Source: a virus
Lineage: Duplodnaviria > Caudoviricetes
Virus record (IMG/VR): IMGVR_UViG_3300012956_000019
Coordinates: 7,375-71,374 of that record
DNA: 64,000 nucleotides
Direction: 5' to 3' (one strand)
Shown here piece by piece: positions 37,151 to 55,165 of the stretch (position 1 is its first letter; every line of letters begins with the position of its first letter). Under the pieces are notes generated by a model. It saw nothing but the letters and a program-made list of their open reading frames with translations. It ran no database searches and had not been told where the DNA came from. Made by a program: the position numbers and the translations under genes.

Positions 37151-38146
37151 TTAGCTTGCTGTGGATGGTGTATCAAGATTGTACAGCTGGCACAAAGCAC
37201 CTTTGTACATTACAGTGAAATCCATTCTTTCTGTAATGACATAAATCTTTGTGTCTTCCTGAATGTAGTCATCCTGTTTGATTCTGACCCTTCTTCTGTC
37301 ACCAATAACAGGATTGCTCTTGTGGGTTAAAACACCATAACCATCAGTACAATAAGCACTGTTGATTACAGCAACTTTACCATATAGCTTTCCAAACTCA
37401 CCAGTGAATATGGTAGCATTTGGGCCATATTTTTCAAGTGTAACAAGTTTGCTATCATCAAGCAACTGATTTGCTGACCATGGATTAAGAATGAGAACTA
37501 AATTGCTCATCACTCTGCCATACTTTCCTAAGTTAAACATTGCCTGTCTAACTAAGGCAGTGGCCATATCTGCACCACTTGCATTGACTCTGTTTGCTGC
37601 TCTTGTGTCCAAAGCTATGGAACCAGCAATGTCACCTGAAAGTGTTAGCAAGCCATTGAAAGCAAATCTGTGGTCTTTGGTGTACCATGTTACATCAGTG
37701 GCATTTGCTTCAACTGCTGTTGAAGGTGAGTGAGCTGTATCACCCTGAATCATTGCTTCCTCTTCTGCTGCAGCAAGTGTTGCAGCAAAATGCTCTCTGA
37801 TGATTGACTGCATGTCATTCTGAGCATCTTCAAGAACTTCTTCACTGGCATCCATTCTTGACATGAATTTTTTAGCTTCCAATCTGATTGTACCAGTGTT
37901 AAGATTGGTTGAATTTGCAGCACCACCTTCTGTTGACTGATAGTACACTTTTGTTCCACCTAAGATTTTTGGATAATCTCTTGTTTTTGTGGCCATAGGA
38001 ACAACTGTGAATGCCTGTCTCAAGAAGTTTTGGTCATACACATGGTTGATGAATTCTGTTGCCAATGGTGTTGGTAAAAAATCACCACCTGCTCCAGCTG
38101 ATGTGGATAATGCTTTTTTAATAGCATCATTTAATGATTTACTCAT
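37151..38146 (-). CDS. major capsid protein (HK97 fold)
   Basis: GGDFLPTPLATEFI...SEEVLED...EEEAMIQGD...GKLYGKVAVINS...ERMDF. Confidence 0.92.
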   Translation of the reverse strand: MSKSLNDAIKKALSTSAGAGGDFLPTPLATEFINHVYDQNFLRQAFTVVPMATKTRDYPKILGGTKVYYQSTEGGAANSTNLNTGTIRLEAKKFMSRMDASEEVLEDAQNDMQSIIREHFAATLAAAEEEAMIQGDTAHSPSTAVEANATDVTWYTKDHRFAFNGLLTLSGDIAGSIALDTRAANRVNASGADMATALVRQAMFNLGKYGRVMSNLVLILNPWSANQLLDDSKLVTLEKYGPNATIFTGEFGKLYGKVAVINSAYCTDGYGVLTHKSNPVIGDRRRVRIKQDDYIQEDTKIYVITERMDFTVMYKGALCQLYNLDTPSTAS

Positions 38147-40068: not shown

Positions 40069-41939
40069 TATTTCATACCTATATAATTTTTCAATATTTT
40101 AATACTATTTCCATTTTTATCTAATAACAATTCACCTCTCCACCATCCTCTATTTAACATGAAATCTTTACCACTTATTTTCACACCATTAATTGTTTTG
40201 TTATATGTAGCAAAATCCCAGCTGTGTTTGAAATTAGAAGTGTCAACAATAACACCAGCTTTTTGTTCTATGTATCCACTAAATGCTCTTGCATAATTTC
40301 TTAATGTTATGTCTGATTCAAAATCAAATCCATATTTTGCCCAAGCATATAGCCCTACATCACCATTGGCATGAACTGTTATTTTATAAACATTATATTT
40401 CTCATAAAATTGAATTTGATTTCTAAATAATTCTTTACCAATTTGCCTATTTTGAAAAGCACCTTCAAGAAAAAATGAATCATGATCAACAATAAGTTTC
40501 TCTGATATTTGTTTTCCTTCAGTAACAATTGACCTTCTTTGAAAATTTCTATGAAATGAACCTATTTCATCACCAGATTTATATGATTTTTCGTGTAATA
40601 TTTGTTTGCTTTCACCATATCTTGTTTCTGTTGTGTACCACTGCAAATTATTGTAATCTTTTTGAGCTTTTAAGTGACCAGACACTCTGAAATTATCTCT
40701 GCCAAGTGGCATTATTTCAACATCTGTCTTAAATTCTGAACCTGTATTGAATGCTTTTTGAAAATCTTCATAAAATATTTTTTGTTCTTGTTTAATACCT
40801 AAAATTGATTTGATGTCATTCTCAAATTCCAATGCTTCTTTTTCAGCTGATCCATTCTCCATAAAATAATCTTTCATGGATGTCTGATTGGCCAATGCTA
40901 TGTTTTCTGCCGCAAGCAATTTGGCTTCATCAAAAGTTTCTGTTGCTAATAATGGCACCCATTGGCATCTACAATTGGCGTGTTGTGGTATTACACCACT
41001 TGCTTGTTCCAATGTATAAATCATCCCTTCAAGCCCAGCGCAAATTGGACACAATCTCTCATCTGGTGAAGTGCTAAATTGTACACGATCTACAACACCA
41101 GATTGCTTAAATCCATCTAATCTGCCTGCATTATAAGCACCATTTATTTCTGTTCTTGCTACAGTATTTGCCCAATGTTTTGGTGACATCTGATATGAAT
41201 AACCTTGTCTGATCACAGTTCCATCTGGTGATATTCTTGGTGGAACTTTAACATCAATTGGTTTATTCCATAATGCCAAAATATTTTTTCTAACTTCAGG
41301 AATGCTATCACCATTTTTAATAGCTTCCAACAAAGTGTATTTTATATTGCTTGAAATCTCTTTACTAACTTGTTCAGAAAGTTTCAATATGTAGTTGTTA
41401 AAAAATTTCTCAACATTCTTATCTCTGAGTGCAAAATCTATTCCAACATCAAAAATACCAAATACAGTGTTTCCACCCATGTTGTAAGAATCAAATACAC
41501 TGTGTGAAATTGCTTCATTGAATGGGTCAGGATTGATGAATGATATACTGTTGATGGTCTTGTCCACACCTGATTTATTTAGCCAATCTCTCATCTCCAC
41601 TGAAAATGTAAATTCCTTAAATCTGGTGATGCCAACAGTTGTATATTTCACCCTTGGTTCAAGTGGAATGTTTTCAAGTTGAACAATACTATCTTTTATG
41701 AACTTTTGGGTGTAAATTTTCTCCAATTGATTTAGCTTTGACAGAACTTCTTTTTGAGCATTGTCAAAAGCTATAATCAATTGCAATTCAAGTTTCTCTT
41801 CAGCCAATATAATCCAATCATAATACCTCTTTTGTATGTCTGATTTTTTCTTGGCCAATCTTTCAACAATAGAAAGTGTTTCAAGAAATTTTCCAACATC
41901 CTGAACCTTCATTGGTGGTGTTAAACTTAATTTATTCAT
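40068..41939 (-). CDS. MuF/SPP1 gp7-like head morphogenesis protein with GNAT-like C-terminal extension
   Basis: TVARTEINGAYN...DERLCPIC...PQHANCRC MuF core; C-terminal FQNRQIGKELF...HANGDVGLYAWAKYGF. Confidence 0.85.
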   Translation of the reverse strand: MNKLSLTPPMKVQDVGKFLETLSIVERLAKKKSDIQKRYYDWIILAEEKLELQLIIAFDNAQKEVLSKLNQLEKIYTQKFIKDSIVQLENIPLEPRVKYTTVGITRFKEFTFSVEMRDWLNKSGVDKTINSISFINPDPFNEAISHSVFDSYNMGGNTVFGIFDVGIDFALRDKNVEKFFNNYILKLSEQVSKEISSNIKYTLLEAIKNGDSIPEVRKNILALWNKPIDVKVPPRISPDGTVIRQGYSYQMSPKHWANTVARTEINGAYNAGRLDGFKQSGVVDRVQFSTSPDERLCPICAGLEGMIYTLEQASGVIPQHANCRCQWVPLLATETFDEAKLLAAENIALANQTSMKDYFMENGSAEKEALEFENDIKSILGIKQEQKIFYEDFQKAFNTGSEFKTDVEIMPLGRDNFRVSGHLKAQKDYNNLQWYTTETRYGESKQILHEKSYKSGDEIGSFHRNFQRRSIVTEGKQISEKLIVDHDSFFLEGAFQNRQIGKELFRNQIQFYEKYNVYKITVHANGDVGLYAWAKYGFDFESDITLRNYARAFSGYIEQKAGVIVDTSNFKHSWDFATYNKTINGVKISGKDFMLNRGWWRGELLLDKNGNSIKILKNYIGMK

Positions 41940-43497
41940 TTATTTTTGTAACCTTATCAGCTGGAAATGTATATGTCTTGCTCAAAAATTGTTCCCTGTC
42001 ATTAATTATCTGCTCAACAATAGCCAATCTTTGACTTGGCTCCATTGTTTCCCAGCCAACAGGTGTCTGATTGTCTTCTGACAAATACTTAGTCAACAAC
42101 GATCTGCTAATCAAATTAACATTTGGAACATTGCCTGCTTGTGGTGTTTTATCAACAGCATTTGGATCACCAGGCACTGATTGTCCATTTGGTCCAATTC
42201 CAAATGGTGCAACATTATTCTGTAAATAAGGAACATCACCCCAAGGAACAGGCATCAAGCCCAATGCTGTTGTTCTTATCTCATTTATTGTAATAACACC
42301 TTTATCCAAATACATTTGATGCCATTCAGCTTGATCCTTTTTATCAATAATGTCCAAATCAAAATCTAAATACACATCAGTCATTCCTAATGCTGTTTTA
42401 TCAAATATAATATGCTTGTTGTATTTATCTGTAAATGATACCATGTGTGGTTTTACAGCATCAATCTTAAATTGTTTGACTTGTTCAGTGACTGAACCTT
42501 TTGCTGCACTTCCAATTTCAACACCTAAAACAACTGGTTGCATTTTATAAACAGCCATGATCTTTTGTAACAACATTTTACTGTATTCTTGAAATTGCAT
42601 TTCTTCATTGCTCATTCCAACTTTCTGAAATGATATTTTACCATTTTCAGTTCCTATGACAATTGGTCTATGTGGCTGACCTCTCAATTCAGTGTCCCAC
42701 CATGTTCTAAATCTTGTCAATGCTGTCTGACCTTGTCCTGTTCCAAGCCCTTCCATCAATACAGCAAATCTTGGTGTAGCATTATTGTAAAAGAAATCAA
42801 GATTAAATTGGCTGGAATATAATTCAGCTGTTACAGTTTGGATAAGTGATTCAAGTGGTGATAATCCATACAGCCTATCTGATTGTGGATTAAGTTTATA
42901 ATACAATAGTTGATTTTTTTTCCATGATGTTATCTTTTTCATGTGTCTATCAACTTGAATATAGGCTTCATCTTCTTTCAACAATCCTTTTTCATCAGCA
43001 TTTATCTTAACTGTATTGCCAGGTACAGCATAAATTTCAACTAATTTCTTGCCTTTATTCAAGTCAGCACCTCTGACTATTTCCATTGACCCAGCATCAT
43101 ATACCAAAATGTCTCTGGCAATTTTTTTCCTTATCTCTGTCAAAGTTTCATAATTTGAATTTGGTTTTTCAAGAAGTTCTGAAACCAAATCCATGTTCTT
43201 TTTAGTTTCATCAGAAAGTTTTGCCTCACTCTGATCTGATCTTAATCTCAGTGGTTTAACTAATGGTGCCACCTCTGTTATTCTTTCAATAGTTTTATCA
43301 ACTATTGCTCTCACCCATGTATTACTGATATACATCATTTTCATTTGTGGAAATGACAAGCCCTTGACAGCAAGTTTCTCTGCATATGCTACATTCCCTG
43401 ATCCACCAACTCTGCCCAATGACAATTCATCACTATCAATGGAACTTTCTTTTGTGTTGGCTTTGTAGAAAAAAGATTTTGAAAAATTTATCATCAC
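41932..43497 (-). CDS. portal protein (HK97/lambda-type)
   Basis: YGLSPLESL...FFYNNATPRFAV...GVITINEIR. Confidence 0.9.
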   Translation of the reverse strand: MMINFSKSFFYKANTKESSIDSDELSLGRVGGSGNVAYAEKLAVKGLSFPQMKMMYISNTWVRAIVDKTIERITEVAPLVKPLRLRSDQSEAKLSDETKKNMDLVSELLEKPNSNYETLTEIRKKIARDILVYDAGSMEIVRGADLNKGKKLVEIYAVPGNTVKINADEKGLLKEDEAYIQVDRHMKKITSWKKNQLLYYKLNPQSDRLYGLSPLESLIQTVTAELYSSQFNLDFFYNNATPRFAVLMEGLGTGQGQTALTRFRTWWDTELRGQPHRPIVIGTENGKISFQKVGMSNEEMQFQEYSKMLLQKIMAVYKMQPVVLGVEIGSAAKGSVTEQVKQFKIDAVKPHMVSFTDKYNKHIIFDKTALGMTDVYLDFDLDIIDKKDQAEWHQMYLDKGVITINEIRTTALGLMPVPWGDVPYLQNNVAPFGIGPNGQSVPGDPNAVDKTPQAGNVPNVNLISRSLLTKYLSEDNQTPVGWETMEPSQRLAIVEQIINDREQFLSKTYTFPADKVTKINE

Positions 43498-44860: not shown

Positions 44861-45214
44861 TTAATGAATGATATTGTTACTTTTAAGATTTTTCATCTCA
44901 TAATCCTCATACACAACTCCATTATTGTGTATTCTATAATTAAAATTTGCAATGCTTAAATTGAATTTAACACAAAATTGAGTGATTGTCATCTTGTGTT
45001 TTAATATGTATTCAATACAAGCTATTGTTACACCTGTTATTTCCATTTCCCTTTTTAACCATTCCCAATCATATTTATCAATTCTTGAAAATTTTCCATC
45101 TGATTTTCTTTTTTGACAATTCCATCTACACAATGATATATCCCTTAATAAAATATTTTGAAGGTGAATAAATTTTGATAAAATATCCACCAAATCCACA
45201 TATACATATCTCAT
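44861..45214 (-). CDS. hypothetical protein, possible C-terminal HTH
   Basis: 117 aa; ATGA overlap with TerL stop; TITQFCVKFNLSIANFNYRI. Confidence 0.5.
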   Translation of the reverse strand: MRYVYVDLVDILSKFIHLQNILLRDISLCRWNCQKRKSDGKFSRIDKYDWEWLKREMEITGVTIACIEYILKHKMTITQFCVKFNLSIANFNYRIHNNGVVYEDYEMKNLKSNNIIH

Positions 45215-46956
45215 CCAAAAAATATTCCTACATCAAGTGAAAATCTATCATAGGCATTTTTAGTTGAACCCACAATTGCATCAATAACATCCTTGCTACC
45301 AACTTCAATTCCCTCAAGCAAAAATCTGTCCCAACTTTCTACTGGGTGATCCACTTTACCATTATCACCAATGGTTAGTTCCTTTGATTCCCTGTGAGCT
45401 ATTGGATGTGGATAACATCTAACAAGCTGTTGATACATCAATTCTTTCCAAGTGTCATATGATTCATTGCTTTTGTCCACAGAAAATGCTTCAGTTGGTA
45501 TGCCCTCTTGATTCATTATCTGTATGCTGTCTCTGCTTTGCCATCCATCATAGGTTACAATGCCAATATTAAATCCAAACTGATTTTTTAATCTCAATAT
45601 GAACTTTCTTACATCTGAAAATTGCACCTCTGTACCTGATTTAGCAACTAATTGAATGGCCAAATCAATTACAACACCTTTTCTTGTTATGTTAAGTTCA
45701 GGATCATCAGCATTGAATTCAACAATAATACCTTCTTTGTACAAATCCTTTTTTAGCCTATCATCTAACTTTGGAAACATAGAATCAATATGAGTCAGAG
45801 CAAATCCAGCACAGTCATTCTTTTTGTCTTTCTTACCAGTGCCTAAATCCACATGTACAGCATACATTCTGCCTTCAGTTCCTTTGAAAAAAGATTTGAA
45901 CTGAAGTGATTGAAGAAAAGCACTGTCAATACTTAACAAATCACCCACTATTGGATTTTCATAAGCTGGTGAAAACATGTATGACAGCATATATTTCTTA
46001 CTAACATATCCACCAACTTCAGCATCACCTTCACACTCATAAGTCATCTTGGCTTTTTCATAATTCCTTTTATATTGTTGTGCCAACTTTTCTCTTGTGA
46101 CCATTAAGTTCACTTCATGTGTCGCTTTCTTACTGCTAAACACTCTTTCATTATCCAATTCCTTTTTGTAAAGAACATCCATTGGATCATTGTGATAATA
46201 CTTATATGAAATAACACATGTTTTACCAACACCTGAAAATCTTGATGTCACTGTATCCCTAACAGCATCCAATAATTCAAATGCCTTTTCAAAAGGAAAT
46301 GAACCAAACTCATCTATTGTTACAAAGAACAAGTTCAATCCTTCACCTGTATTAGTTTCACTGTTTAGAGAATGTGCTGTAATGGAAAATGGAAACTTGA
46401 CTTCAGATGTCTGTAAGTCATATCCATCTCTCATATCTACACCCTTTTCAGCAAACCAGTTTTTACCAGTTCTTGGATTGATACATTTCTTTAACAATGA
46501 TTTGAACTTTTTGAAATACACATTTATTGCTTGTCTGGCATTAATGGACATATTAGCCACATCAATAGCATCATCATCACCAATTGAACATCCATATTCT
46601 GTTCTTAGGAACTCATGTGGATTTTTAAGACACATTAATTTGTATATCAAATACACCTGCATCTTGCTGATTGTTCGATCTTTACCACTTCCCTTGCCCC
46701 AAAAAGCATGTCCTTCATCATAATCTGTGTTAAATTCTGTGGCTAATTCACCAAGCATAGCCCTGCTGAATTCATCTTGAACTGGAAACAACCCTTCACC
46801 CAGCCAATCTAAACAAAAAGTTTGTATGTCCACTGGTTTCTCTGACCAAACATCACTATCTATTTGGCTAACAGATGATGGTGTAACAACAGCTGAATAT
46901 AGTTCATCCATGAACACTGTTTTAACTGGTTGAGCTTTTGTAAGTGTCCTTGCCAT
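45211..46956 (-). CDS. terL: terminase large subunit
   Basis: Walker A GKGSGKD, Walker B VTIDE, nuclease HVDLG...TYDGWQS...SKDVIDA. Confidence 0.92.
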   Translation of the reverse strand: MARTLTKAQPVKTVFMDELYSAVVTPSSVSQIDSDVWSEKPVDIQTFCLDWLGEGLFPVQDEFSRAMLGELATEFNTDYDEGHAFWGKGSGKDRTISKMQVYLIYKLMCLKNPHEFLRTEYGCSIGDDDAIDVANMSINARQAINVYFKKFKSLLKKCINPRTGKNWFAEKGVDMRDGYDLQTSEVKFPFSITAHSLNSETNTGEGLNLFFVTIDEFGSFPFEKAFELLDAVRDTVTSRFSGVGKTCVISYKYYHNDPMDVLYKKELDNERVFSSKKATHEVNLMVTREKLAQQYKRNYEKAKMTYECEGDAEVGGYVSKKYMLSYMFSPAYENPIVGDLLSIDSAFLQSLQFKSFFKGTEGRMYAVHVDLGTGKKDKKNDCAGFALTHIDSMFPKLDDRLKKDLYKEGIIVEFNADDPELNITRKGVVIDLAIQLVAKSGTEVQFSDVRKFILRLKNQFGFNIGIVTYDGWQSRDSIQIMNQEGIPTEAFSVDKSNESYDTWKELMYQQLVRCYPHPIAHRESKELTIGDNGKVDHPVESWDRFLLEGIEVGSKDVIDAIVGSTKNAYDRFSLDVGIFFG

Positions 46957-51217: not shown

Positions 51218-52116
51218 TCACCCACACCAAATGCTCTTTCCACAAACCAACTCAAATCAAACTCCACACTGAAATAGTAAAATGGCTTGCCATACTTTGC
51301 CCAGCCTCTATAAATAGTTGCCATTGTGTTCTTAACCACAAAATGATGGGCATAAGCAATCAACCAACTGCCATAGAACTTTTCCAAATCCTTATATGCC
51401 AGCCTATCAAACACATCATTCAATTCCCTGCCTATTTTATTTGGGTGATGGAACTTAAAAAATTGGTCACCAGATGTATTCATTGTTAAATAGTTTTGAA
51501 GCCAGCCATCACTGTCCAATGTTGGATACATATATCCAAATGCATGGCTTTCTAACACACCCAAACCAATACCACTAACAGTTGAGTACACACTGCCCAA
51601 TATAATATCCTTGCTATGGTAAACACGAACCTCATCATACACCAATTTGTATTTCTCATACAATGCCTCAAGTTCTAATGGTGTCTTGATGTTACTGTAC
51701 CACACTCCATTGCTGTCTTTGTCCAACATTCCTTCACTAATTAACATTTCACTAATAATTCCAACACTTTCTTTCCATTCTCTTTGACTCATTGTCTGCC
51801 CAACCACACTTAACTGTGTACAGAATATGAGCAATATCAATATGCTATATAACTTGTGCCCAAACTGCCTATGGAATGGTGGATAAATTGTTTTGTCAAG
51901 CATGAATGGTGTTTCAGCTTCCACTGCCATTGGTACTGGTGTCTGTGTTTTTAGCCTTAACCAAACTACACCAGTAAACATTACAATAATTCTTTCCCAA
52001 ATTGATAACTTCCAGCAACTTATGTATTGCTCATCATCTCTATATGCATACATATCAGACACAGGTGGTTTGCCTAACAATTTCACATTAACTTGCTTAA
52101 ATTGTATTGGTTTCAT
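51214..52116 (-). CDS. hypothetical protein, two-part with central hydrophobic segment
   Basis: N-terminal MKPIQF...SCWKLSIWERI...FTGVVWL phage-type domain; LYSILILLIFCTQLSVVG segment. Confidence 0.65.
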   Translation of the reverse strand: MKPIQFKQVNVKLLGKPPVSDMYAYRDDEQYISCWKLSIWERIIVMFTGVVWLRLKTQTPVPMAVEAETPFMLDKTIYPPFHRQFGHKLYSILILLIFCTQLSVVGQTMSQREWKESVGIISEMLISEGMLDKDSNGVWYSNIKTPLELEALYEKYKLVYDEVRVYHSKDIILGSVYSTVSGIGLGVLESHAFGYMYPTLDSDGWLQNYLTMNTSGDQFFKFHHPNKIGRELNDVFDRLAYKDLEKFYGSWLIAYAHHFVVKNTMATIYRGWAKYGKPFYYFSVEFDLSWFVERAFGVGE

Positions 52117-52130
52117 ATCACTAAATCCTT

Positions 52131-52589
52131 TTAATTGTTTCCAACAACTTCAATTGTCTTTTCTAATGTTACCACACCATCATTTCTTGTCACAAATTGG
52201 AATGGTGTATTCAAAGGGAACACTGCCATCTGTTCAAATAACACCATACTGTATCTCATATTGTCAAACACCACTACTTTCTGTCTTGGATTGATTTTGA
52301 TTTGGAACTTATCTAATGTATATATCAATCTGTCCCAATCATAATGTGTTATAATGGCTGTTCTGATAGCTTTGTAAACTTCTTTCAACAACTTTAACAA
52401 TTTGTACCTCTTAATAACCTGCCACCACTTCAAGTCAACCAAAATATTTATAATTCCATAAACATCTTCATCCAAACTGACCACATCAATAAAATTATTT
52501 CCATCACCACTCAACCAACTGTAACTGATGCCATGTTTCTTCAATTGTTTACCTAACAAATCCATTCTCTCATCAAAATCCTTCATCAC
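52131..52589 (-). CDS. hypothetical protein
   Basis: 152 aa; AAGGAACT RBS. Confidence 0.65.
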   Translation of the reverse strand: MMKDFDERMDLLGKQLKKHGISYSWLSGDGNNFIDVVSLDEDVYGIINILVDLKWWQVIKRYKLLKLLKEVYKAIRTAIITHYDWDRLIYTLDKFQIKINPRQKVVVFDNMRYSMVLFEQMAVFPLNTPFQFVTRNDGVVTLEKTIEVVGNN

Positions 52590-52686
52590 TTTAGTTCCTT
52601 ATGTTTAATTTTTACTGTTGTATTAAAATCTCTCACAAGCTGAAACAGAACAGTTAAGATTTTGTTTCAATACTTGCCCAACTAAT

Positions 52687-52857
52687 TTAATCTTCAATCA
52701 ATGATTCTGTTTTGACTGTAGATGTAATTGTAATCTTTTTGAGCTTGTAATTTCTAATAATGTAAACAGCTATTTTTTCCATCATCTGCTCAAATGTTTT
52801 ACAACCAGCAACTGAATCTTTCAAATCATTCACTATGTCATTCTTAGTTTTGGCCAT
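52687..52857 (-). CDS. small hypothetical protein (56 aa)
   Basis: Manually translated MAKTKNDIVNDLKDSVAGCK...; AAAGGA RBS. Confidence 0.55.
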   Translation of the reverse strand: MAKTKNDIVNDLKDSVAGCKTFEQMMEKIAVYIIRNYKLKKITITSTVKTESLIED

Positions 52858-52889
52858 TTTGTATTTTTCCTTTTATTTTCATTAAATTA

Positions 52890-53460
52890 AATCTGCCAAC
52901 AGGACAACTGATGCTCTGTGCTGGCATTTGGTATTTGACTGTTTGATATTATTCCCTTATATTGTCCAGTTGTCCAGCTGGTGGAAACTGAAATGTTGTT
53001 GTGAAAATGTATGTGTGTCAGAAGAGCACATTGCCCAACCCCTGGTGCCACCATTGGCCACAAAATGCCACCACCCCCACCAATTGGCCAGCAATTCCCA
53101 CTTTTGCACAGTCTAATGTGACAGATGTTGTCCAGATGTTGTGGCATGGTTACACTTGATACACTTGACACAGATGTTGTCCGATCTTTGCAATAAATAA
53201 ATTCCTTGCTCATATAGGTAAAAACACACTGAACTGTTGATAATCCAACTGTTATGGCAAGCGTATGGTGTATGTCATCTGGGTATTGTGGTGGTGAAAT
53301 GGCGTGGCAACCTGGCAATGTGTCAATGGCACACACACAATGCAACCACCATGGCATTACTTCAACACCAACTCCATCACCACTTTCTTTCCTTACAACA
53401 GGCATTCCCAACACAGTACAGCCACCATTCCAAGTGACTATTTCATTAAATTCTTTCATC
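52890..53460 (-). ncRNA. candidate structured non-coding RNA / long hairpin element
   Basis: About 45% GC island with nested inverted repeats (53008-53020/53327-53339, 53027-53035/53314-53322, 53046-53055/53298-53309, 53092-53100/53280-53288); strand assumed from flanking genes. Confidence 0.4.
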
Positions 53461-53677
53461 ATCTTCTGTTCCTCACTGGCAACTCCATACATTCCCAAGT
53501 GATATTATTAACAATAACACTATCATTACACACATTCTGTTCTACACTGACACATTTACTTAGTGATACTATACATAACAATAAGATAAACAACTTAATA
53601 GTTACATTTAGTTCTATATGTTTCTTACGTACAAATGTATTTATCTTAGTTCTCAATCTTTTCTTTCTGTCCTTCAT
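53459..53677 (-). CDS. small membrane or exported protein
   Basis: Basic N-terminus plus LFILLLCIVSLSKC. Confidence 0.4.
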   Translation of the reverse strand: MKDRKKRLRTKINTFVRKKHIELNVTIKLFILLLCIVSLSKCVSVEQNVCNDSVIVNNITWECMELPVRNRR

Positions 53678-53721
53678 CCTACACCATATTGGTTGTTGTT
53701 CTTAGGATTTATTTAATTGTA

Positions 53722-54039
53722 TCAAATCTTTTGGGTGATGATAGGTTGATTACACTTGATGTCCAGTACAGTATTGTCCACCATATGTAGAGTCAGATGT
53801 AAGTCAACAACTGGGTTGGTGTACAATAAATCTCTTGTTAAGCTACTGACTGAACTGAATTGTGTATCAATGACTGTAAAGTGTTTATTAACATTTAGTG
53901 TTACTGATGCATAATTGCCTTTAATAAGTGTACAAAGTTCCTTTTGTTCTTTTAATGTTAATCGTTTATCAATATCAACTTTATTAAACAACTGTTGTAA
54001 TCTTTTATGGTTGTATTTATTACTTAATTTTAATGGCAT
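53722..54039 (-). CDS. hypothetical protein
   Basis: 105 aa; GAGG RBS. Confidence 0.6.
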   Translation of the reverse strand: MPLKLSNKYNHKRLQQLFNKVDIDKRLTLKEQKELCTLIKGNYASVTLNVNKHFTVIDTQFSSVSSLTRDLLYTNPVVDLHLTLHMVDNTVLDIKCNQPIITQKI

Positions 54040-54043
54040 GTTT

Positions 54044-54340
54044 TTAATCCTCAGTGAATATGTTCATGTGTTCAATATAGATTGTTATTGCTGTATTTTG
54101 TAAGCTGAAATAACTTTGTACAGGTGTTGTGTTAGTTAGTTCCTTTGACCTTCTTAATATCTCAGTATGATTTACACCATCTTGTTTTAGTGTTACAGCA
54201 ACTGTATATGTATCTGTCAGGTGGATCTGCTTTACATATTCTGATTTACTAAAATGTTCTATTAAATCAGCCAACACCTTTTGTCTTTCCTCAAATAACT
54301 TTATGCTGTCTTGTAGTGTCATCTTATAAAAATTGTACAT
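54044..54340 (-). CDS. hypothetical protein
   Basis: 98 aa; AAGGGA RBS. Confidence 0.6.
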   Translation of the reverse strand: MYNFYKMTLQDSIKLFEERQKVLADLIEHFSKSEYVKQIHLTDTYTVAVTLKQDGVNHTEILRRSKELTNTTPVQSYFSLQNTAITIYIEHMNIFTED

Positions 54341-54352
54341 ACATTTGTTCCC

Positions 54353-55165
54353 TTATATTGATTCAATTTCTGCCTTAAATAATTCAGTGGGCATATAATT
54401 ATCAGACAAATCATTTAATACATCTATTGATTGTTTAGGTGTTAAAAACATGGCATTCTTTTTTATCTTAGTTAAACAGTCAAGTGTAACAACATCACCA
54501 ACTGGTCTTTTCTTCAGCCAATAATAACAGGCATCTTTGTATTGTACTGCTATACAATTATAAAACTGTTCTGGCTTGGTATCATCTACATCTTTCTTTT
54601 CCAAGTGTACAACAGTGTAACTTCTTATAATGTAATTTTTATCTGATTTAATTAAAGTGTCCAACATCTGTTTAGCTTCATATGTTTCTTCAGGTGTTCT
54701 GAATATCAGTGCTTTCGATCTTTGTATTGTAAGATTTATGTCATATGTGAATGTTAAGCCATCTGTCAGTTGTTTCAACCAAAACTTATTTTCATCCTTG
54801 TTTGTTATCTCTATGATATCACCATTGTAATGGACAGCTGGCTTATTATCTAAGTTTTGTTTCACCAACTGTGCTATGGTCTCATTGTTATTAGCTATGT
54901 CTGTGAGCTTATCAATGATGAGCCAAATGTTATATTCACTTGCTTTCTCCCATCTGTTGTGTAGTGTCACTTCATCTTTCCTAACATCTGCTAATTGCTT
55001 TGCTGTATTTATTCTTTTGGTCAGGATATTTTTCAATTCACCTGAATATGATTCTATAACTTCCAACACCTCAACAAGCCTCTGATCAGCTAATTCATCA
55101 AGTGTTATCTGTTTAATAGCTTTTGTTATGTTTTCTATATGGTGTATTTGTTTCTCTACAGTCAT
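54353..55165 (-). CDS. hypothetical protein with two similar C-terminal modules
   Basis: FWLK...ALIFRTPEE and YWLK...AMFLTPKQ repeats; similar AHIFTPTE in 55345..55617. Confidence 0.7.
   Translation of the reverse strand: MTVEKQIHHIENITKAIKQITLDELADQRLVEVLEVIESYSGELKNILTKRINTAKQLADVRKDEVTLHNRWEKASEYNIWLIIDKLTDIANNNETIAQLVKQNLDNKPAVHYNGDIIEITNKDENKFWLKQLTDGLTFTYDINLTIQRSKALIFRTPEETYEAKQMLDTLIKSDKNYIIRSYTVVHLEKKDVDDTKPEQFYNCIAVQYKDACYYWLKKRPVGDVVTLDCLTKIKKNAMFLTPKQSIDVLNDLSDNYMPTELFKAEIESI

Follow-up and report, generated by a model that had tools for sequence, protein, structure and literature searches.

A GC-rich island in a tailed-phage genome where an open but unconstrained reading frame overlies conserved complementary blocks

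The tailed phage represented by IMG/VR virus record IMGVR_UViG_3300012956_000019 has an AT-rich genome (30.7% GC) that carries nearly all of its genes on the minus strand, and within it lies a short GC-rich island that raises the question of what kind of element it is: a structured RNA, a DNA site, or a gene. We analyzed it in a 64-kb stretch (the window) of the 71,374-bp contig, a record estimated to be 81% complete. An initial annotation, made from the letters of the window alone, had proposed that positions 52890-53460 fold into a long nested hairpin and form either a large noncoding RNA (ncRNA) or a structural DNA site. The compositional part of that proposal was correct: GC content is 0.434 over the island and 0.583 over 53041-53100, compared with 0.295 and 0.297 in the flanks, and the most GC-rich 300 nucleotides (nt) of the window (0.46) are those of the island, with the major capsid gene close behind (0.457). 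As to what the island is, sequence comparison suggests that it is best described as a putatively translated open reading frame (ORF), with unconstrained amino acids and a frame that turns over between lineages, lying over a conserved nucleic acid signal made up of a G-run and two blocks complementary to each other.

The ORF in question is as follows.

52887 to 53462, minus strand: the island ORF, 191 amino acids (aa), starting at the ATG at 53462 and coextensive with the island to within a few bases.

Its frame contains no internal stop, whereas the other five frames carry 5 to 10 stops each, and an open frame of at least 203 codons appeared in only 1 of 5000 dinucleotide shuffles. A GAGGAAC sequence is found 11 nt ahead of the ATG, fitting the ribosome-binding site (RBS) word of this genome and its typical spacing. 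AGGAAC(T) stands 10 to 13 nt ahead of many start codons, and this position implies that it, and not the canonical GGAGG, is the word preferred by the phage; the 9-mer AGGAACTAA occurs in 22 copies versus 0.44 expected (for example, at 52599, 50931, 50671, 30022, 13035, 4671, and 2019, on the minus strand). The ATG overlaps the TGA stop codon of an upstream 72-aa ORF in an ATGA arrangement, and the stop codon of the island ORF lies 29 nt before the next gene. In having an open frame beyond chance and a start signal, the island ORF thus resembles an ordinary gene.

Its product does not look ordinary, however. The 191-aa sequence matched only itself in 5.8 G proteins and 1.84 G representative proteins, and nothing beyond itself was found in the ESM Atlas, a phage collection (blastn and tblastn), or the viral contigs. 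A partial homolog in a related phage (L017, see below), 56% identical with an E value of 1e-42, was reached solely through the neighboring gene. Neither Pfam nor PHROGs yielded a significant match for the island ORF, the neighboring ORFs, or the ORFs of relatives. With a codon-model score of 0.012, the island ORF ranks second from the bottom among 60 ORFs. As the initial annotation had remarked, the composition is atypical, and we found it to be the most extreme in the window (Cys, 5.4%; Trp, 3.4%; His, 4.9%; charged residues, 11.8%). GC content at third codon positions (0.38) is at the level of the neighboring genes, with the surplus GC in codon positions 1 and 2. The excess of Cys, Trp, and His and the scarcity of Arg arise because the sequence is GC rich yet lacks CpG, which has been lost to TpG and CpA. 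A single-sequence AlphaFold2 model had a mean pLDDT of 30, with no predicted fold, and was uninformative.

To place the island in an evolutionary context, we used terminase-based searches, which gave distant relatives, including L007, and then used the gene directly downstream of the island as an anchor. L numbers denote contigs of related phages, and WIN denotes the window's own island sequence.

52687 to 52857, minus strand: the conserved 56-aa gene directly downstream of the island, used as the anchor for finding the islands of relatives.

The terminase of L007 is 72% identical to that of the window phage, and L007 carries a GC-rich island (0.43 to 0.46), followed directly downstream by a homolog of the 56-aa gene that is 60% identical. 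Across relatives, identity to the 56-aa gene is 89% in L017, 60 to 66% in L007 and L021, and 57% in L022, with differences distributed over the three codon positions in the normal pattern (16, 10, and 22 of 57). L017 is a close relative (79% nucleotide identity) whose contig holds just the last 417 nt of the island; the L022 island has identical copies in L023 to L026; L021 represents a further full-length lineage; and the L028 contig reaches the last 90 nt alone. Another contig that ends within the island, L019, was also used for the comparison of block 2 (see below). Four full-length islands (WIN, L007, L022, and L021) were therefore available. L003 and L004 have the 56-aa gene and no island. 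The island is thus syntenic in four other lineages (L017, L007, L022, and L021), and across lineages its GC content is 0.40 to 0.45, versus 0.31 to 0.35 in the contigs that carry it. This GC richness is conserved, even though drift toward AT would be expected to remove it from unconstrained sequence. Gene callers predict an ORF of 215 to 225 aa in each lineage (138 aa in the truncated L017), which ends 23 to 44 nt ahead of the 56-aa gene or overlaps it. The 215- to 225-aa protein of relatives is rich in Cys, Trp, and Gly and has an N-terminal hydrophobic anchor in L007 and L022; a profile search with these two proteins returned those two alone.

Comparison of the islands showed that one frame, and only one, is held open. 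Exactly one forward frame is free of stops in each of WIN, L017, L007, L022, and L021, and the others contain 3 to 21 stops. In the four full-length islands, the open frame had a shuffle P value of ≤0.0015, and the chance of a frame staying stop free under unconstrained substitution was 0.017 for the WIN-L017 pair and 5e-5 for the L007-L022 pair. Between L007 and L022, frameshifting indels of 1 nt are compensated nearby. The differences between WIN and L017 (21 to 23% divergence) are nonetheless spread evenly over the codon positions (31/135, 33/137, and 32/136), as are those between L007 and L022 (0.31, 0.37, and 0.35), so that the third-position excess expected of purifying selection is absent. 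Nor do the relatives read their homologous DNA in the same frame: the frame of the window is common to L017 alone, L007 and L022 share another (38% identity, E value of 5e-32), L021 and L028 use the L007/L022 frame at block 2 (see below), and the frame of the relatives contains at least 8 stops in the window. An intuition behind the initial annotation, that the ORF does not encode an ordinary conserved protein, is borne out by the lack of codon-position bias and of frame conservation. These results show that selection keeps one frame open across lineages without constraining either the amino acids or which frame is used.

What is constrained lies in the nucleic acid, at the following places.

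53307 to 53349, minus strand: block 1, GCATTGTGTGTGTG-S-CATTGACACATTG, read in different frames in different lineages.
53006 to 53036, minus strand: block 2, GCAWTG, 10 nt, and then ACAYACATACATT, present in all six lineages that reach the region.
53061 to 53083, minus strand: the G-run block, TGGTGGGGGTGG..., at a constant 60 nt upstream of block 2 across lineages.

In block 1, up to 19 of 20 alignment columns are invariant among WIN, L007, and L022, and this is the sole stretch with at least 16 of 20, in an alignment that is 30% invariant overall. The 13-nt core of block 2, ACAYACATACATT, has 12 invariant positions and one Y over six lineages, synonymous sites included; L028 has GCATTG in this block, and L017 has a C at the position corresponding to 53027. 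The G-run has 5 G residues in WIN and L017, 6 in L007 and L022, and 7 in L021. Block 1 reads HCVCAIDTL in the window and GIVCVALTH in L007 and L022, and block 2 reads QCALLTHIHF in the window and AM.SN.HTF in L007, L022, L021, and L028. Because the frame differs across them, the conserved blocks cannot be a single protein motif. We also considered a conserved small ORF hidden in the window's frame across lineages and rejected it, since L028 has a TAA in that frame within block 2. Exact-pattern scans for blocks 1 and 2 found no matches in the viral_contigs or genome_contigs sets. The comparison therefore shows that the constrained features are those of the nucleic acid, namely GC richness, the G-run, and two complementary blocks ~300 nt apart.

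Blocks 1 and 2 are mutually complementary in all four full-length sequences, and RNAalifold, run on these four, returned one long-range helix of 16 pairs.

53324 to 53339, minus strand: 5' arm of the predicted consensus helix.
53012 to 53033, minus strand: 3' arm, with a 1-nt bulge and a 5-nt internal loop that are kept in all four sequences.

In this helix, 96.7% of the cells are paired and three pairs show compensatory change (G-C to C-G in the window; U-A to A-U and G-C to U-A in L021), a result reached by 2 of 500 shuffles, and controls with the arms slid out of register reached at most 61%. Three cells are G-U, which would be A-C mismatches on the other strand and which favor sense RNA over antisense RNA or DNA. 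The duplex formed by the two blocks has a calculated energy of -31.6 kcal/mol in the window, -21.4 in L007, -18.5 in L022, and -17.2 in L021, values matched by at most 1% of shuffled partners in each lineage. Its length is ~23 bp in the window, 21 bp in L007, and 14 to 17 bp in L022 and L021, with internal loops in all.

The initial annotation had built its nested hairpin from four inverted repeats, and all four are present: 53008-53020 with 53327-53339 (11 of 13 paired), 53027-53035 with 53314-53322 (9 of 9), 53046-53055 with 53298-53309 (with a 2-nt bulge), and 53092-53100 with 53280-53288 (8 of 9). Only the two outer pairs appear to be meaningful, in that their arms fall in the two blocks conserved among relatives; the inner pairs showed no conservation in relatives. 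Even for the outer arms, the register first proposed, the most stable one in the window, pairs 71.8% of its cells without a single compensatory change, a result that does not exceed shuffles, and it is a slightly shifted register that shows the three compensatory pairs. The most overrepresented dinucleotides of the island are TG (rho, 2.07) and CA (rho, 1.78), and since TG-rich and CA-rich runs are reverse complements and both in excess, they pair by composition and such helices arise easily; dinucleotide shuffles reproduced them. RNAalifold found the interior helices to be weak, no conserved pair was found in the 3' domain over six aligned sequences, and a pairing of block 2 with the G-run was tried and rejected because it is not conserved. 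The structure is thus one clamp rather than an ornate RNA.

How a frame foreign to its relatives came to be open in this phage is suggested by the DNA upstream of the island.

53459 to 53677, minus strand: the 72-aa ORF, the N-terminal remnant, with a hydrophobic segment, of the 215-aa protein of relatives.
53464 to 53552, minus strand: a local tandem duplication of ~71 nt (18-mers at 53464-53481 and 53535-53552, 83% identical; repeat families D4 and D2).

The 72-aa ORF matches residues 16 to 77 of the L007 and L022 proteins, hydrophobic segment included (BLASTP E values of 2e-5 and 6e-5). The island ORF takes its RBS and ATG from the downstream copy of the duplication, and the upstream copy corresponds to the ...SIEQNV... 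coding sequence of relatives. The homology of the remnant, the stops that fill the relatives' frame, and the duplication together imply that an older gene was split and that a new frame took over. Over its hydrophobic segment, the 72-aa ORF also has a weak PHROG match (E value of 0.042) to the Cor superinfection exclusion family, which we treat as a lead only; that the ancestral 215-aa protein was a small exported or membrane-anchored protein is likewise a lead.

We propose the following sequence of events and roles. The ORF occupies a conserved position as the last gene before the 56-aa gene, the first of a block that continues into the genes for lysis and packaging. An ancestral membrane protein gene has been broken in this phage, its anchor surviving as the 72-aa ORF; the ~71-nt duplication made a new RBS and ATG, and a different frame of 191 aa is now open. 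In the sense transcript, the two blocks may form a long-range stem of 14 to 23 bp, depending on the lineage, and the stem may act as a cis-acting signal, for example, as a site for double-strand-specific processing or for stability; alternatively, it may slow ribosomes or RNA polymerase as they enter the downstream operon. The ORF itself would mainly serve to keep ~600 nt covered by ribosomes and so avoid polarity. A long-range stem in sense RNA is, in our estimation, the most likely form of the conserved signal, with a probability of roughly 0.4. A more ambitious version, which we regard as speculative and rather unlikely, is that the island is a new phage cis-element, a long-range clamp plus G-run at the entry to the late and lysis block, set within a "frame-agnostic" ORF in which the passage of ribosomes would be the sole selected property and both frame and protein could turn over freely between lineages.

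Several observations weigh against a sense-RNA stem under a protein-indifferent ORF. Only four full-length sequences contribute, the three compensatory pairs come from two lineages, and the alignment from which RNAalifold selected the helix also served for counting its pairs. The arms hold (TG)5 and (CA)n tracts, which pair easily, and the best register varies by lineage; in L021, block 1 has a closer-lying partner in the minimum-energy fold. Overall folding z-scores are unremarkable, and the interior shows no other conserved structure. Ribosomes would melt a stem inside an ORF, so that a function at the DNA level fits the idea of a "cover ORF" at least equally well. The patchy identity of WIN and L017 could be due in part to mosaic recombination, and a real, rapidly diversifying protein function may still underlie the ORF.

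This last possibility amounts to a rival explanation, a fast-evolving orphan accessory gene encoding, for example, an exported or membrane-anchored host interaction or exclusion protein under diversifying selection, and we consider it unlikely. The same rival would have the blocks be short protein motifs combined with slow-mutating, microsatellite-like DNA, with their complementarity a by-product of TG/CA-rich composition. It accounts for an ORF that is open in all lineages with its frameshifts compensated, for an RBS and a start codon translationally coupled to the upstream ORF, for the hydrophobic anchor of the L007 and L022 proteins and the Cor lead in the 72-aa ORF, for a dinucleotide bias that favors TG/CA pairing, and for folding z-scores near zero. 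It does not account for a frame that differs between lineages over the conserved blocks themselves, for a complete lack of codon-position bias, for synonymous sites that are invariant in the blocks when third positions of the neighboring gene differ by 39%, or for compensatory double changes and a duplex stability retained in four lineages. A decaying, functionless pseudogene, in which the open frame and the blocks are mere leftovers, is less probable still. The gene was indeed split and the frame of the relatives is riddled with stops, and the 191-aa product lacks homologs and a predicted fold and has a codon score near zero. However, the alternative frame, open in so few shuffles, has also stayed open in L017 despite the divergence of that phage, it begins with a functional-looking RBS and ATG, and the blocks are nearly identical to those of distant relatives while their surroundings have diverged; moreover, phage genomes usually delete dead DNA.

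The two possibilities raised by the initial annotation fare differently. A DNA-level inverted-repeat site that the ORF merely crosses, be it an intragenic inverton, a pair of sites for looping, replication, or packaging proteins, or a hairpin in single-stranded DNA, is doubtful but has points in its favor: the two inverted arms change in parallel and stay conserved whatever the reading frame, and such a site would be undisturbed by translation. Moreover, related-phage assemblies from many samples break inside the island or just upstream of it, with 15 of the 18 contigs that have the 56-aa gene carrying it in the first 17% of their length (the contigs tallied are among L017 to L020, L025 to L028, and L030 to L035), which suggests population-level heterogeneity or an assembly problem at the locus. 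The contig ends are scattered, however, rather than placed at one boundary, the segment does not fold unusually well as DNA (z = -0.39), and imperfect arms with a conserved bulge and G-T positions suit RNA better. For an inverton in particular, imperfect inverted repeats (blocks 1 and 2) do flank a segment of ~290 nt, and the flipped interior would be fully open in L022; against this, it would contain 3 stops in the window, 1 in L007, and many in L021, no inverted copy occurs among the assemblies, which are all colinear, and no serine or tyrosine recombinase (Resolvase and Phage_integrase domains) or reverse transcriptase was found in the 71-kb, 81%-complete record. The large structured ncRNA with an incidental ORF, in the manner of the ornate phage RNAs, is very improbable. 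The GC richness kept in all relatives, the conserved long-range closing helix, the absence of amino acid constraint, and the fold of L007 (z = -2.07) are what such an RNA would predict. Yet relative to dinucleotide shuffles, we found no excess folding stability over 52890-53460 (571 nt; z = +0.91 for the plus strand and +1.31 for the minus strand) or over 53000-53345 (346 nt; -0.74 and +0.03, the DNA value given above being for this segment), and the other relatives are mixed (+0.79 for L022 and -1.48 for L021). A cmscan search of 52000-54500 on both strands against the 4227 models of Rfam 15, which include tRNA, transfer-messenger RNA (tmRNA), RNase P, introns, and large phage ncRNAs, gave 0 matches at an E value of ≤1, and ARAGORN found 0 tRNA or tmRNA genes over the window. 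RNAalifold gave no second well-supported helix and, in the best-conserved 3' part, no helix whatever, the interior aligns poorly, and an incidental ORF would not have stayed open in five lineages. The nested hairpin as a large ncRNA is thus not supported.

The preferred reading, an unconstrained ORF over a long-range nucleic acid signal, has partial counterparts among known systems. Genes born when an older gene changes frame or is overprinted are an established concept, and the island resembles them in that the DNA under its open new frame is homologous to a gene that relatives read otherwise and in that its product is close to translated random sequence in composition and has no homologs; it differs in that neither the old nor the new frame shows amino acid constraint and in having blocks that are conserved whatever the frame. 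Another parallel is the long-range RNA stem that encloses a segment, as in the RNase III processing stems that flank rRNAs and in long-distance interactions in RNA phage genomes. The likeness consists of short complementary tracts hundreds of nucleotides apart that are conserved with compensatory changes, and the 14- to 23-bp island duplex is near the length needed by double-strand-specific nucleases; the difference is that the stem predicted here belongs to a DNA phage, sits within a translated ORF, and varies in register by lineage. With the large ornate ncRNAs associated with phages (GOLLD and ROOL) and the self-splicing introns, as represented in Rfam 15, the locus shares the form of a GC-rich island of 0.4 to 0.6 kb in an AT-rich phage genome, but the island lacks a covariance model match, conservation of multiple helices, and excess folding energy, and its ORF is kept open. 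Intragenic invertons are a described class (PMC10028968) with inverted repeats that lie within a coding region and flank a few hundred bases; for the island, there is neither an inverted copy in the assemblies nor a phage invertase, and inversion would add stops.

If the preferred reading is right, three layers of selection, on open-frame status, base composition, and long-range pairing, would act on the same DNA with none on the amino acids. The locus would then provide a clean natural example of a cover ORF, a case of new protein sequence arising by a frame switch inside a decaying gene, and an uncharacterized regulatory signal at the junction of variable early genes and a conserved block. 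Should it prove wrong, what remains is an orphan gene of an ordinary kind that evolves fast. The island also carries a warning for annotation, in that a "hypothetical protein" of 191 to 215 aa is called in every relative and the products are nonhomologous even though the DNA is homologous.

The remaining features of the locus are of a more local kind.

53121 to 53182, plus strand: interior repeats, ACAGATGTTGTCC in two copies 49 nt apart and a tandem pair of TACACTTGA, in the least conserved part of the island.
52877 to 52888 and 53441 to 53452: a 12-nt direct repeat, TTTCATTAAATT (repeat family D12), 564 nt apart and bracketing the island.
45211 to 46956: the large terminase gene, a landmark of the window.
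41932 to 43497: the portal gene, another of the landmark genes.
37151 to 38146: the major capsid gene, likewise a landmark.

The island is set among small unannotated genes, ~6 kb upstream of the terminase gene as transcription runs; a lysis-like cassette separates the two. A scan for promoters and terminators found no more sites than in shuffles, and L017 has not retained the single promoter-like site, at 52976-52948. The 12-nt repeat was considered as a target site duplication of an element bounded by the helix arms, an idea we rejected, given that the repeats flank the arms at a distance of over 100 nt. A recent foreign origin of the island was rejected as well, since the island shares the CpG loss of the genome and relatives have it at the same spot. 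Over the window plus the preceding 7 kb, 60 CpG dinucleotides were found versus 1602 expected (rho, 0.037); the island has a rho(CG) of 0.11, the major capsid gene contains zero CpG, and rho values in relatives run from 0.00 (L002 and L017) up to 0.57 (L004). In the L007-type relatives (L029:3776-4420, on the same contig as L007, and L030 to L033), an N6/N4 DNA methyltransferase gene (PF01555) lies ~1.3 kb downstream of the 56-aa homolog.

The repeats of the interior, which the initial annotation had pointed out, were found as described, and the two copies of ACAGATGTTGTCC are read in different frames because of their 49-nt spacing. At the site of the TACACTTGA tandem, L017 has a different perfect 9-nt tandem pair: on the coding strand, window positions 53151-53168 contain TCAAGTGTA twice, and L017 contains GTCAGTTGG twice at ~150-170. 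The sequence CTGGACAA is tandem in the window and present as a single copy in L017. Different 9-nt tandem pairs at one place indicate repeated slippage or concerted change. No paralogs of the island were found elsewhere in the phage genome, and the island was rejected as the target of a diversity-generating retroelement, as there is no RVT_1 match and the rest of the genome contains no long direct repeat of island sequence. Counting both strands of the window, TACACTTGA is present in 8 copies (25716, 37434, 39816, 53151, 53160, 53751, 54480, and 55376) versus 1.09 expected, a number reached by 0 of 100 shuffles; 5 of the 8 lie within 53.1 to 55.4 kb, and the copies often adjoin GTTGT or GATGT words. 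One copy falls within a 105-aa ORF at 53722-54039 on the minus strand, where it is followed by TGTCCAG words resembling those of the island; the codon-model score of this ORF (0.010) is as low as that of the island ORF, and it may be another poorly constrained ORF.

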